A stretch of 64,000 nt of DNA, from the NCBI RefSeq assembly GCF_044324875.1, contig NZ_CP172185.1; one strand, 5' to 3'. The DNA is from Escherichia coli. Its GTDB lineage: Bacteria; Pseudomonadota; Gammaproteobacteria; Enterobacterales; Enterobacteriaceae. Below the pieces are notes generated by a model. That model searched no databases, had not been told where the DNA came from, and saw only the letters and a program-made list of their open reading frames with translations. Position numbers and translations under genes: made by a program. This document shows positions 3,491-62,216 of the stretch, piece by piece (positions within the stretch are counted from its first letter, which is position 1; each line of letters opens with the position of its first letter).

Positions 3491-3670
3491 CTCTTTATGA
3501 AGTCTGAAAAGTGAGGAAATGCTGCGAGTATAACGCTTACACGTGGCGATTTATGTTTTGCTGGTAGTTTCGTGATCAACACCTCGTGCCAGGATGGCTT
3601 TATGCACTATCGCAATGTGGTTTGTTTGTTGTCTTGTTCGTTGTTTTTATCGTCGGCATGGGGCTTTTAA
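3491..3670 (+). repeat. Copy 1 of conserved 5' leader module of the islet paralogs (decayed)
   Basis: About 175 bp alignable by eye to 4579-4760 and in part to 7455-7565; contains AGGA RBS and ATG. Confidence 0.7.
3602..3670 (+). pseudogene. Truncated signal-peptide remnant of an islet paralog
   Basis: 22-codon frame MHYRNVVCLLSCSLFLSSAWGF-stop; same signal peptide as the ORFs at 4688 and 7498 but the Cys after AWG is replaced by Phe and followed by TAA. Confidence 0.5.
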
Positions 3671-4578: not shown

Positions 4579-4760
4579 CTTTATGGATTCTGAAAAGTGA
4601 CGATTTGCTGCGAGAGTTACGCTTACTTGTGAGGATTTATGTTCTGCTGGTAGTTTCGTGATCGGCACCTCACGCCAGGATGGCTTTATGCACTTTCGCA
4701 ATGTGGTTTGTTTGTTGTCTTGTTCGTTGTTCTTATCGCCTGCCTGGGGATGTAAGCTTT
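4579..4760 (+). repeat. Copy 2 of conserved 5' leader module
   Basis: Near-identical to 3491-3670; spans upstream leader, RBS and signal-peptide codons of the ORF starting at 4688. Confidence 0.7.
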
Positions 4761-14565: not shown

Positions 14566-15765
14566 ATGACGGAACAAGAAAAAACCTCCGCCGTGGTTGA
14601 AGAGACCAGGGAGGCCGTGGACACCACGTCACAACCTGTCGCAACAGAAAAAAAGAGTAAGAACAATACCGCATTGATTCTCAGCGCGGTGGCTATTGCT
14701 ATTGCTCTGGCGGCGGGCGTCGGTTTGTATGGCTGGGGTAAACAACAGGCCGTCAATCAGACTGCCACCAGCGATGCCCTGGCTAATCAACTGACGGCAC
14801 TGCAAAAAGCCCAGGAGAGCCAAAAAGCTGAGCTGGAAGGCATTATCAAGCAACAAGCTGTACAGCTTGAGCAGGCGAATCGTCAGCAAGAAACGCTGGC
14901 AAAACAGTTGGATGAAGTCCAACAAAAGGTCGCCACCATTTCCGGCAGCGATGCTAAAACCTGGCTGCTGGCTCAGGCCGATTTTCTGGTGAAACTCGCA
15001 GGACGGAAGCTGTGGAGCGATCAAGACGTCACGACCGCTGCAGCGTTGCTGAAAAGTGCAGATGCCAGCCTGGCGGATATGAATGACCCGAGTCTGATTA
15101 CCGTTCGTCGGGCAATTACCGATGATATCGCCAGCCTTTCTGCGGTATCGCAGGTGGATTATGACGGCATCATCCTGAAGCTCAATCAGCTTTCAAATCA
15201 GGTAGATAACCTGCGTCTGGCCGATAATGACAGCGATGGTTCGCCGATGGATTCCGACGGTGAAGAGCTTTCCAGTTCCATCAGCGAATGGCGTATCAAT
15301 CTGCAAAAAAGCTGGCAGAATTTTATGGACAACTTCATTACGATTTGCCGTCGTGATGACACCGCCGTACCGCTGTTAGCGCCAAATCAGGATATCTATC
15401 TGCGCGAAAATATTCGCTCTCGCCTGCTGGTCGCGGCACAAGCCGTACCGCGTCATCAGGAAGAGACTTATCGCCAGGCGCTGGAGAACGTCTCCACCTG
15501 GGTACGTGCTTACTACGATACTGATGATGCCACCACCAAAGCGTTCCTCGACGAGGTGGACCAGTTAAGCCAGCAAAATATCTCGATGGATCTCCCGGAA
15601 ACCCTGCAAAGCCAGGCGATGCTGGAAAAACTGATGCAGACTCGCGTGCGTAACCTGTTGGCACAACCGGCAGCGGGGACAACGGAAGCTAAACCTGCAC
15701 CTGCACCTGCACCTGCACCTGCACCGCAAGCTGATACTCCGGCAGCCGCGCCGCAAGGAGAATAA
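14566..15765 (+). CDS. hemX: HemX membrane protein
   Basis: 399-aa ORF with N-terminal TM segment, coiled-coil Q/A-rich region and Pro-Ala-rich C-terminus. Confidence 0.9.
15694..15723 (+). repeat. Hexanucleotide tandem repeat (cctgca x5) inside hemX
   Basis: Five perfect in-frame copies encoding [10 protein letters not shown]. Confidence 0.9.
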
Positions 15766-15767
15766 CC

Positions 15768-16964
15768 ATGCTAAAAGTGTTATTGCTCTTTGTTTTGCTG
15801 ATTGCGGGGATAGTGGTTGGCCCGATGATTGCCGGACACCAGGGTTACGTGCTGATCCAGACCGACAACTACAATATTGAAACCAGCGTCACTGGCCTGG
15901 CGATTATTTTGATTCTGGCAATGGTAGTGCTGTTTGCCATTGAGTGGCTACTGCGGCGGATCTTCCGCACAGGCACACACACCCGTGGGTGGTTTGTCGG
16001 ACGTAAGCGTCGCCGTGCCCGTAAGCAGACCGAACAGGCGCTGCTGAAACTGGCGGAAGGCGATTATCAGCAAGTTGAAAAGCTGATGGCGAAAAATGCC
16101 GATCACGCTGAACAACCGGTGGTGAACTATCTGCTGGCTGCCGAAGCCGCGCAACAACGCGGTGATGAAGCACGCGCCAACCAACATCTGGAACGCGCAG
16201 CGGAGCTGGCCGGCAACGACACAATTCCGGTAGAAATCACCCGTGTACGTCTGCAACTGGCCCGTAATGAAAACCATGCAGCACGTCACGGCGTTGATAA
16301 GCTGCTGGAAGTTACGCCACGCCATCCGGAAGTATTACGTCTGGCGGAACAGGCGTATATCCGCACTGGTGCATGGAGTTCGCTGCTGGATATCATCCCA
16401 TCAATGGCAAAAGCCCACGTTGGCGATGAAGAGCATCGTGCAATGCTGGAACAACAGGCATGGATTGGCCTGATGGATCAGGCGCGTGCCGATAACGGTA
16501 GCGAAGGTTTGCGTAACTGGTGGAAAAACCAAAGCCGGAAAACGCGTCATCAGGTGGCGTTACAGGTGGCAATGGCGGAACATCTTATTGAATGTGACGA
16601 TCATGATACTGCCCAGCAAATTATCATCGACGGCCTGAAACGCCAGTATGACGATCGCCTGCTGCTGCCGATCCCGCGTCTGAAAACCAATAACCCGGAA
16701 CAGCTGGAAAAAGTGCTGCGCCAACAGATCAAAAACGTGGGCGATCGCCCGTTGTTGTGGAGCACACTGGGTCAGTCGCTGATGAAGCACGGCGAATGGC
16801 AGGAAGCATCGCTCGCCTTCCGCGCGGCGCTGAAACAACGTCCGGACGCCTACGATTACGCATGGCTTGCCGACGCGCTGGACAGACTGCACAAGCCGGA
16901 AGAAGCCGCAGCGATGCGTCGCGATGGCTTGATGTTAACGTTGCAGAACAACCCGCCACAGTAA
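15768..16964 (+). CDS. hemY: HemY, TPR-containing heme biosynthesis-associated membrane protein
   Basis: 398-aa ORF with N-terminal TM helices; last gene of hemCDXY. Confidence 0.9.
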   Translation: MLKVLLLFVLLIAGIVVGPMIAGHQGYVLIQTDNYNIETSVTGLAIILILAMVVLFAIEWLLRRIFRTGTHTRGWFVGRKRRRARKQTEQALLKLAEGDYQQVEKLMAKNADHAEQPVVNYLLAAEAAQQRGDEARANQHLERAAELAGNDTIPVEITRVRLQLARNENHAARHGVDKLLEVTPRHPEVLRLAEQAYIRTGAWSSLLDIIPSMAKAHVGDEEHRAMLEQQAWIGLMDQARADNGSEGLRNWWKNQSRKTRHQVALQVAMAEHLIECDDHDTAQQIIIDGLKRQYDDRLLLPIPRLKTNNPEQLEKVLRQQIKNVGDRPLLWSTLGQSLMKHGEWQEASLAFRAALKQRPDAYDYAWLADALDRLHKPEEAAAMRRDGLMLTLQNNPPQ

Positions 16965-16970
16965 TCTATA

Positions 16971-17000
16971 TCGCCTCGTTCAGAGGCGATATTTTTTTAC
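16971..17000 (+). terminator. Intrinsic terminator after hemY
   Basis: Hairpin atcgcctcgttcagaggcgat followed by a T-run. Confidence 0.75.
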
Positions 17001-17004
17001 CAGG

Positions 17005-17604
17005 ATGTCAAAATTGCGCACGCCGTCCCGCTATCTTTTTCGCTTGCCATCGCATGAAATTACTCCTTTTCGGGCAACGCTCTTTTTAATCTTGTTGATA
17101 TGTGCCGCTCTGGCTGGCGTAAGTTGGCTGATTATTTCCTTTGTGCGTACGGGCAATACATTCATCTTCTGGTTAACACTTTTTATTGGGTATCTGATAG
17201 CTGCGGCGAAGCAGGAAAAAATCAAGCTCCTCAAGAAGTACCGAATCATGGCAGATAAACGTCGGGGACGCTCCATTTGCCAGTTCGCCCGCGAATTTGA
17301 CACCTACACCGTAGATACATGGGTGATTCGTGCGGTGTGGGATACCTTGCAAGGAAACGGTTATATCGATTACCCACTGCCACTGAAAGCCGATGATATA
17401 CTGGACGATGATCTGGATTTGGTGAGCGACGCAGTCGAGTTAGAAGAGCTGGTTGAAGATACCGCTGCTCGTTGCGGGCGCGATCTATGCGGAATAGAAG
17501 AGAATCCGTTTCTTCCCATCGTCACGGTAGGCTCTCTTGTAAGAGTGTTAAACGCGCAACCGATGACCCAGGAGCGACGTAACCAGTTCTTTATCCGGTC
17601 ATAA
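17005..17604 (+). CDS. Hypothetical protein (199 aa), predicted membrane-anchored with acidic C-terminal region
   Basis: Uninterrupted ORF with coding-like composition; hydrophobic N-terminal segments; acidic stretch DDILDDDLDLVSDAVELEELVED; weak RBS at 17005; stop abuts the glmZ terminator. Confidence 0.4.
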   Translation: MSKLRTPSRYLFRLPSHEITPFRATLFLILLICAALAGVSWLIISFVRTGNTFIFWLTLFIGYLIAAAKQEKIKLLKKYRIMADKRRGRSICQFAREFDTYTVDTWVIRAVWDTLQGNGYIDYPLPLKADDILDDDLDLVSDAVELEELVEDTAARCGRDLCGIEENPFLPIVTVGSLVRVLNAQPMTQERRNQFFIRS

Positions 17605-21361: not shown

Positions 21362-21438
21362 TGGTCGGCGAGAGAGGATTCGAACCTCCGACCCACTGGT
21401 CCCAAACCAGTTGCGCTACCAAGCTGCGCTACTCGCCG
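21362..21438 (-). tRNA. proM: tRNA-Pro (anticodon UGG)
   Basis: Reverse complement gives CGGCGAGTAGCGCAGC...anticodon loop with TGG...TTCGAATCC...CCA. Confidence 0.9.
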
Positions 21439-21480
21439 AAATACTGCTTTTTGAATTTTTAGTTCAATTCTTTAAAGTCG

Positions 21481-21567
21481 TGGTGCGAGGGGGGGGACTT
21501 GAACCCCCACGTCCGTAAGGACACTAACACCTGAAGCTAGCGCGTCTACCAATTCCGCCACCTTCGC
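21481..21567 (-). tRNA. leuT: tRNA-Leu (anticodon CAG)
   Basis: 87-nt class II tRNA GCGAAGGTGGCGGAATTGGTAGACGCG...long variable arm...CCA. Confidence 0.9.
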
Positions 21568-21587
21568 ATTGTCACAACTTCTAATAA

Positions 21588-21664
21588 TGGGGTGGCTAAT
21601 GGGATTCGAACCCACGACAACTGGAATCACAATCCAGGGCTCTACCAACTGAGCTATAGCCACC
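21588..21664 (-). tRNA. hisR: tRNA-His (anticodon GUG)
   Basis: GGTGGCTATAGCTCAGTTGGTAGAGC...GTG anticodon...CCA with the extra 5' G. Confidence 0.9.
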
Positions 21665-21721
21665 ACTACAAATCTTGTTACGCGGTATTACTACCACCGC
21701 AGCTCAAGCGCCGGGACTAAA

Positions 21722-21798
<77 letters not shown>

Positions 21799-38082: not shown

Positions 38083-38412
38083 TTACGCCAGGTTAGCGTC
38101 GAGGAACTCTTTCAACTGACCTTTAGACAGTGCGCCCACTTTGGTTGCCGCCACTTCACCGTTTTTGAACAGCAGCAGAGTCGGGATACCACGGATACCA
38201 TATTTCGGCGCAGTGCCAGGGTTTTGATCGATGTTCAGTTTTGCAACGGTCAGTTTGCCCTGATATTCGTCAGCGATTTCATCCAGAATCGGGGCGATCA
38301 TTTTGCACGGACCGCACCACTCTGCCCAGAAATCGACGAGGATCGCCCCGTCCGCTTTGAGTACATCCGTGTCAAAACTGTCGTCAGTCAGGTGAATAAT
38401 TTTATCGCTCAT
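38083..38412 (-). CDS. trxA: Thioredoxin 1
   Basis: Translation [18 protein letters not shown]...WCGPC... (109 aa) matches TrxA. Confidence 0.97.
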
Positions 38413-38542
38413 ATATAACTCCACAGGAATAAGCCTGGCGTGTTGGTTTCGTTGTTGGTGTAACATTAACCAACTAAAGGTTGACTTTATTTCACCGGAT
38501 ACGCTTTCGTAAAGCAATAGTAAGCTGATATTCTACCACACT

Positions 38543-57075: not shown

Positions 57076-57083
57076 AATTAGGG

Positions 57084-57160
57084 TGGCGGAACGGACGGGA
57101 CTCGAACCCGCGACCCCCTGCGTGACAGGCAGGTATTCTAACCGACTGAACTACCGCTCC
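57084..57160 (-). tRNA. aspT: tRNA-Asp (anticodon GUC)
   Basis: GGAGCGGTAGTTCAGTCGGTTAGAATACCTGCCTGTCACGCAGG...CCGCCA. Confidence 0.9.
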
Positions 57161-57212
57161 ACCGAATTCTTTTACAACCACCGGTTTTATGACCGGCTTA
57201 CTGCTTAATTTG

Positions 57213-57332
57213 ATGCCTGGCAGTTCCCTACTCTCGCATGGGGAGACCCCACACTACCATCGGCGCTACGGCGTTTCACTTCTGAGTTCGGCATGGGGTC
57301 AGGTGGGACCACCGCGCTACGGCCGCCAGGCA
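57213..57332 (-). rRNA. rrfC: 5S ribosomal RNA
   Basis: 120-nt match to E. coli 5S rRNA (TGCCTGGCGGCCGTAGCGCGGTGG...GGAACTGCCAGGCAT). Confidence 0.95.
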
Positions 57333-57424
57333 AATTCTGTTTATCAGACCGCTTCTGCGTTCTGATTTAATCTGTATCAGGCTGAAAATCTTTCTCTCAT
57401 CCGCCAAAACATCTTCGGCGTTGT

Positions 57425-60329
<2,905 letters not shown>

Positions 60330-60513
60330 TCACAACCCGAAGATGTTTCACTTCAGAGTTGCGAAAATTTGAGAGACTCACGAACAACTTTCGTTGTTCA
60401 GTGTTTCAATTTTCAGCTTGATCCAGATTTTTAAAGAGCAAATATCTCAAACAAGACTTAACAGTCTGTTTTGAGATATTGAGGTCGGCGACTTTCACTC
60501 ACAAACCAGCAAG

Positions 60514-60589
60514 TGGCGTCCCCTAGGGGATTCGAACCCCTGTTACCGCCGTGAAAGGGCGGTGTCCTGGGCCTCTAGACGAAGGGGAC
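60514..60589 (-). tRNA. gltU: tRNA-Glu (anticodon UUC), 16S-23S spacer tRNA
   Basis: GTCCCCTTCGTCTAGAGGCCCAGGACACCGCCCTTTCACGGCGGTAACAGGGG...CGCCA. Confidence 0.9.
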
Positions 60590-60674
60590 GTATCAGTCTG
60601 CTTCGCAAGACGCCTTGCTTTTCACTTTCTATCAGACAATCTGTGTGAGCACTGCAAAGTACGCTTCTTTAAGG

Positions 60675-62216
<1,542 letters not shown>

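Follow-up and report, generated by a model that had tools for sequence, protein, structure and literature searches.

A polymorphic CCTGCA repeat at the 3′ end of Escherichia coli hemX corresponds to the typing locus CVN014

The hemX locus and its tandem repeat

The window analysed here, a stretch of 64,000 nt (64 kb) of Escherichia coli DNA (contig NZ_CP172185.1, assembly GCF_044324875.1), contains the gene hemX and, starting 2 nt past the hemX stop codon, the gene hemY (Table 1). The hemX ORF matches the Pfam family HemX PF04375 (E=1.5e-107, residues 130-363), and the RefSeq label is hemX in every matching genome. In the protein, a cytoplasmic N-terminal segment leads into one transmembrane helix, and a long helix then precedes the HemX domain, to which the Pfam match corresponds. 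The most hydrophobic 19-mer, residues 36-54, is the single hydrophobic segment of the protein, and the N-terminus is hydrophilic. As three Lys directly precede the hydrophobic segment, an N-in, C-out orientation is suggested, with the C-terminal tail probably located in the periplasm.

The hexanucleotide array lies near the end of hemX and consists of five full CCTGCA units (15694-15723) and, after them, a partial “cc”. Its Tandem Repeats Finder score of 66, with period 6, 5.5 copies and 100% matches, is the highest of the 64-kb window. When the sequence is compared with itself at a lag of 6, the array gives an exact run of 27 bases, while the runner-up among the real runs of the window has 12 and the longest runs in shuffled sequences have 13 (200 mononucleotide shuffles) and 12 (200 triplet-block shuffles). 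The array is, consequently, confirmed as real and far beyond chance. Codon 377 starts at 15694, so that the array reads (CCT GCA)x5 and its product is (Pro-Ala)x5, residues 377-386 of the 399 of HemX, with the stop coming 13 residues later. The preliminary description of this DNA, which had reported five in-frame tandem copies of cctgca near the HemX C-terminus, was exact on this point.

Table 1. Features of the window, with their coordinates, strand and the evidence on which each is based
Feature	Position	Strand	Evidence
hemX CDS, 399 aa with the 5-copy allele	14566..15765	+	ORF, Pfam, RefSeq annotation
Pro/Ala-rich C-terminal tail of HemX, codons 367-399, holding the repeat	15664..15762	+	sequence, AlphaFold2 model
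CVN014 primer site GCAGCRGGGACAACGGAAGC	15670..15689	+	0 mismatches
Perfect hexanucleotide tandem array, CVN014 VNTR by primer match	15693..15725	+	sequence read, Tandem Repeats Finder
AAGGAG, likely hemY Shine-Dalgarno (inferred role)	15755..15760	+	sequence read
hemY CDS, 398 aa, HemY_N and TPR repeats	15768..16964	+	ORF, Pfam
CVN014 primer site TCCCCGCAATCAGCAAMACAAAGA	15787..15810	-	0 mismatches
GlmZ sRNA, just downstream of the ORF in the accessory-looking segment	17603-17809	-	Rfam
Four-tRNA cluster	21365-21798	-	Rfam
trxA 5′ UTR thermometer	38383-38482	-	Rfam
“Rev39 5′ UTR” match, containing a 15-bp tandem repeat (53656-53692)	53492-53781	-	Rfam
Complete rRNA operon with its tRNAs	57003-62216	-	Rfam

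Variation in copy number across E. coli

A search of complete E. coli genomes, for which the query was 230 bp long and had the array in its middle, found the locus in 5,425 of 5,426. The allele distribution was read from two evenly spaced samples of these 5,425 genomes, each of 59 rows (118 in total) and with at least one genome common to both; the first consists of full-length rows obtained with this 230-bp query, and the K-12 allele was the query for the second. Among the 118 sampled rows, there are 14 alleles of 2 to 18 copies (Table 2), and the allele of the window, with 5 copies, belongs to the second commonest class. In one further strain, the array has been deleted. Nei diversity of the array is 0.89 in the first sample and about 0.88 when both are combined. 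The expectation, raised in the preliminary description, that repeat number would vary among strains is thus borne out, as the comparison of hemX alleles across E. coli genomes found different copy numbers rather than the identical number in all strains that would have spoken against it.

Table 2. Genomes per copy number at the hemX array, two samples combined (118 rows, at least one genome common to both samples)
Copies	Genomes
2	23
3	6
4	8
5	20
6	17
7	9
8	11
9	6
10	7
11	4
12	2
13	3
16	1
18	1

The alleles differ in 6-bp steps only. In the first sample, the matched span runs from 211 to 307 bp exclusively in steps of 6, as checked with a script, and the length differences in the second, worked out by hand from the spans, are likewise all multiples of 6. 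Additionally, base-by-base reads of the 2-, 5-, 8-, 13-, 16- and 18-copy alleles gave uninterrupted CCTGCA arrays with matching flanks. Every fetched allele is in frame and encodes a HemX of 384 to 425 aa, for instance of 393 aa with 2 copies, 399 with 5, 421 with 16 and 425 with 18. The sampled K-12 strains carry 2 copies, and HemX of MG1655 has, accordingly, 393 aa. The protein of 384 aa is that of NCTC11023 (NZ_LS483297.1), where an in-frame deletion has taken out the complete array together with the 15 nt after it; the sequence reads GCTAAACC before the deletion junction and GGCAGCC after it, at about 255-275 of the compared stretch.

Copy number also differs between very close relatives. 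Over 3,199 bp of flanks, 0 mismatches separate the O157:H7 strains 9.1_Anguil and ECP19-598, and yet they carry 8 and 16 copies, respectively, which indicates that the array changes much faster than its surroundings. Four O157:H7 genomes of the two samples have 5, 8, 13 and 16 copies.

A separate observation concerns NZ_CM135829.1, a record labelled DH5alpha, which has 5 copies, as opposed to the 2 of all sampled K-12 derivatives. This record is of 4.83 Mb, about 0.25 Mb above the sampled K-12-derived records (about 4.57-4.61 Mb), and its strain label may be wrong.

Correspondence with the typing locus CVN014

A 6-bp locus, CVN014, forms part of the generic E. coli MLVA scheme (Lindstedt et al. 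2007, as cited in PMC8143711), known as GECM-7/GECM-10 (Lindstedt et al. 2007, Lobersli et al. 2012; cited in PMC8143711, PMC3877011, PMC5217547). Its primers and the formula that converts the size of the product into copies, (product size - 111)/6, are given in Table 1 of PMC8143711. Both primers match the window uniquely, where 0 matches are expected by chance, and they converge around the hemX array. The amplicon predicted from them (15670-15810) has 141 bp, and (141 - 111)/6 = 5, the number of units read from the sequence. The amplicons of the 2-, 13-, 16- and 18-copy alleles, of 123, 189, 207 and 219 bp, fit the same formula. Flanking primers, a 6-bp unit with an offset of 111 bp and high polymorphism are, therefore, all found at the hemX array and, judged from these matches, it is the published VNTR CVN014, an already known and ordinary feature, which the preliminary description had not identified as a typing locus in routine use. 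We found no statement in the searchable literature that hemX is the site of CVN014, and it is the primer matches that connect the two; searches combining hemX with tandem repeats or MLVA returned only an unrelated Salmonella SNP table and no paper naming a hemX VNTR.

The published behaviour of CVN014 resembles that described above. No other locus of the scheme has been reported to vary as much, whether different serotypes or members of a single serotype are compared (PMC3424435, PMC3519732, PMC3877011, PMC5217547), and CVN014 is also given as the biggest contributor of variation in ESBL-producing isolates (PMC5217547, PMC3877011). Fragment sizing gave alleles of 2-18 copies, with 5 to 11 in O157:H7 (PMC3424435), and other PCR-sized ranges are 2-12 (PMC5217547) and 1-15 (PMC3407997), the range within ST131 being 2 to 11 copies (PMC3407997). 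The diversity index of CVN014, 0.83, was the top of the scheme (PMC3519732), to be compared with our Nei values of 0.89 and about 0.88. The allele spectrum obtained from genomes agrees with these reports, so that CVN014 and the hemX array coincide as one locus in primers, unit, offset, allele range and top-ranked diversity.

These reports also bear on the possibility that the variation is an artefact of sequencing or assembly at a site of low complexity. Although some assemblies are prone to errors in short tandem repeats, the differences seen here are exact multiples of 6, made of perfect units and present in complete assemblies, and PCR sizing across many laboratories gives a similar range (PMC3424435, PMC5217547, PMC3407997). 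The chance that an artefact explains the variation is, consequently, negligible, and the MLVA results from wet-lab work have, in practice, already refuted this reading.

As CVN014 has been in use since 2007 as the most discriminating generic E. coli MLVA marker, the array itself has little discovery value. What is gained is a mapping detail, the placement of CVN014 at the 3′ end of hemX, together with an allele spectrum from complete genomes. In practice, variation at this site should be read neither as a functional difference in hemX nor as an assembly error. Additionally, NCTC11023 has a mismatch in a CVN014 primer site (GGGGATAACGG), because of which MLVA amplification could fail and the strain could be scored as a null allele.

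Origin of the variation

The array is very probably the CVN014 microsatellite, changing by slippage and varying near-neutrally in a tail that tolerates the change. In this model, the repeated strands would misalign by whole units during replication (slipped-strand mispairing), and units would be gained or lost as a consequence. With a unit of 6 bp, each change would keep the reading frame and would add or remove Pro-Ala dipeptides only. The unstructured tail past the folded HemX domain would tolerate these changes in length, allowing many alleles (from 0 to at least 18 copies) to coexist, and near-identical strains would differ in copy number as a result of the instability of the array. For hemX, we infer both slippage as the mutational mechanism and near-neutrality, the latter being assumed.

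Slippage is the mechanism best supported by the whole-unit changes, the uninterrupted arrays, the continuous series from 2 to 13 copies and the clonal differences. The alleles differ by whole units in otherwise identical sequence, as expected for a VNTR. Slipped-strand mispairing is also generally accepted as the way in which loci of this kind change (PMC3777172), and it is consistent with all that was observed at hemX. Other 6-bp VNTRs of O157:H7 have been followed under passage, where they also changed by whole units, at rates of 4.4e-5 to 1.8e-3 per generation (PMC3777172). These hexanucleotide VNTRs of the O157:H7 MLVA (Vhec/TR/O157-n; PMC3777172, PMC3768571) resemble the hemX array in that they outpace substitutions, are employed in outbreak typing and vary within O157:H7. 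By contrast, they were chosen for O157 specifically, while practically every E. coli has CVN014.

Recombination, either by unequal sister exchange or by the horizontal import of alleles, seems unlikely to be the main source of change in copy number in place of slippage. The gap of several units between near-identical strains (8 vs 16 copies) is in its favour, as is the observation that 48% of the passage events in other O157 VNTRs involved more than one unit, and recombination may contribute to such large changes (PMC3777172). However, the continuous distribution from 2 to 13 copies is what stepwise change predicts, and slippage has been judged predominant for VNTR units of ≤6 bp (PMC3777172). 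Regarding import, the 3.2 kb of flanks are identical in both O157:H7 strains and, thus, the arrival of a foreign allele is not needed to account for their 8 and 16 copies. Furthermore, as a matter of general knowledge, a 30-bp array is a very short substrate for RecA-dependent exchange.

The HemX tail and its probable tolerance of length change

The simplest interpretation is that the variation is near-neutral, being tolerated in a HemX tail free of constraint. An AlphaFold2 model of HemX, built with 76 homologues (mean pLDDT 78.8), places a helix at residues 36-126, followed by a helical domain whose last helix ends at residue 366. Residues 367-399 are modelled as coil, with a pLDDT of about 55-59, and the tail that carries the repeat is thus predicted to be unstructured. 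Pro and Ala make up 61% of residues 364-399.

The preliminary description had taken the repeat for a linker of variable length, and this part of it does not stand. The repeat sits past both the end of the Pfam domain (residue 363) and the last predicted helix, and only 13 residues and no domain follow it. An interdomain linker was accordingly rejected, as the repeat joins no two folded domains, and the region is better described as a tail of variable length. The difference is apparent when it is compared with the Glu-Pro / Lys-Pro region of TonB, a Pro-rich periplasmic spacer between a membrane anchor and a folded C-terminal domain. Both are Pro-rich, extended, low-complexity regions of inner-membrane-anchored proteins that face the periplasm, but the TonB spacer leads to a folded domain and the HemX repeat only to 13 residues.

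HemX has also been described as a distant gammaproteobacterial homologue of Mic60 in which the C-terminal mitofilin domain is missing (bioRxiv 10.1101/2022.06.14.496148, preprint). The N-terminal anchor, the long helix and the helical domain of the model fit Mic60/mitofilin in general architecture, and Mic60 has its mitofilin domain where HemX ends in a short variable tail. On a different matter, the RefSeq product name of HemX is “uroporphyrinogen-III C-methyltransferase”, while the AlphaFold2 model is all-helical and membrane-anchored, with a 90-residue helix and without methyltransferase-like features; the label of an enzyme is probably a misnomer of historical origin.

The tails of orthologues vary as well. 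In Citrobacter and Salmonella, they are rich in Pro, Ala and Thr and end in ..APQGE, but their middle part differs, and the Salmonella tail has no repeat. Tails in the C. gillenii/freundii group have (AP)3 to (AP)5, in proteins of 395, 397 and 399 aa, and those of C. sedlakii have one to three PAA units, in proteins of 394, 397 and 400 aa. These protein sequences point to a separate repeat instability at the same site of the tail in Citrobacter. In homologues that are more distant, the tail measures 5-84 residues and its sequence is not conserved, and some of these tails carry other short repeats (KPET-like, QP).

An E. coli-like HemX of 485 aa was also found in an ENA metagenome contig. In this protein, about 86 residues of the C-terminal domain are duplicated internally in tandem, a feature that may be real or an assembly artefact, and the array is interrupted, PAPAPAPTPAPAPAP.

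Contingency loci, such as the tetranucleotide repeats in surface genes of Haemophilus and Neisseria, are likewise hypermutable coding repeats that change by slippage. They switch genes on and off, as their unit is not a multiple of three, or alter promoter spacing, and the hemX array does neither. Phase variation was, in fact, rejected for hemX: a unit length divisible by three rules out frameshift switching, no allele departs from the reading frame and the array does not sit within a promoter. An adaptive contingency locus of another kind could nonetheless be imagined, in which the length of the tail tunes HemX (e.g., its C-terminal periplasmic reach) and selection keeps the array hypermutable. 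The very high allelic diversity would be compatible with such a locus, as would the recurrence in several genera of repeat-prone Pro/Ala tails with differing units ((AP)n, PAA, KPET-like, QP) and the conservation of the residues that follow the variable part. Moreover, the hemX knockout is viable and has a phenotype, being less sensitive to gentamicin (PMC12282077); neither this phenotype nor the described relation to Mic60 ascribes a function to the tail. We nevertheless consider a contingency locus quite improbable, for the 6-bp unit permits no on/off switching, the tail is predicted to be unstructured with no domain downstream, and an allele without the array exists in nature (NCTC11023). 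Salmonella and many other homologues lack the repeat, with tails that range from 5 to 84 residues, and an informal look at copy number revealed no apparent link to host or source.

A more specific form of this idea is that the tail is a selected “length dial” for the periplasmic reach of the conserved C-terminal peptide, which lineages would adjust through the hypermutable Pro-Ala array and, in Citrobacter and distant homologues, through comparable repeats of independent origin. If true, it would tune the role of HemX/HemY in haem or envelope biology, but we regard it as highly improbable, and the evidence gives no support to selection on the length of the tail. The ..APQGE end, being conserved across genera, may give the tail some function, although the conserved residues overlap the ribosome-binding site of hemY and could be explained at the DNA level (see below). 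By contrast, the deletion allele of NCTC11023 and the repeat-free tail of Salmonella support the near-neutral reading of the variation. For work on this poorly understood protein, it is relevant that the last ~30 residues of HemX appear to be unconstrained in length.

The junction with hemY

The likely Shine-Dalgarno of hemY, AAGGAG, lies within the last codons of hemX (CAA GGA GAA TAA, encoding ..Q G E and the stop), which may explain the conservation of these codons. The distance from the end of the array is 30 nt to this motif and 43 nt to the hemY ATG. Such proximity raises the possibility of a role at the RNA level, in which the length of the array would alter the structure of the mRNA upstream of the hemY start and tune HemY translation, and the TGCA palindromes of long arrays can indeed pair into an imperfect hairpin. 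The predictions do not favour it: with anything from 0 to 25 copies, the hemY initiation region has the same predicted unpaired probability, 0.30, and no effect of copy number on its accessibility is predicted over this range. As DNA, neither strand of the 5-copy array is significantly structured (z = -0.7 and -0.9). Additionally, ribosomes translating hemX pass through this region and would unfold it. A role in HemY translation is, thus, a very remote prospect, and there is no sign of a regulatory role of the array. For the 18-copy array as DNA, a folding energy of -23.9 kcal/mol (z = -4.3) was obtained, but the centroid structure is empty and no special DNA structure is claimed for this allele.

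One genome stood out at this junction. In P276M (NZ_CP044293.1), the alignment to the hemX-hemY junction query is split into two pieces and covers only 78% of it, and the gene downstream of hemX is labelled “HemY N-terminal domain-containing protein”, which hints at a disrupted or truncated hemY.

Other observations in the window

Between hemY and the GlmZ sRNA gene there are 638 bp (16965-17602), with an ORF of 199 aa on the + strand (17005-17604) that has no Pfam match and is annotated as “hypothetical protein”. Only 690 of the 5,426 complete E. coli genomes have the segment, which comes in two divergent forms, one in 105 genomes at ≥95% identity and another in 585 at 80-90%. It looks like an accessory insertion.

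Further upstream in the window, there is a direct repeat of 171 nt (3493-3663 and 4579-4749), with 87% identity between its copies and a spacing of 1,086 bp, which probably reflects two adjacent paralogous genes. Each copy holds a 12-bp tandem, TTGTTCGTTGTC, detected by Tandem Repeats Finder.
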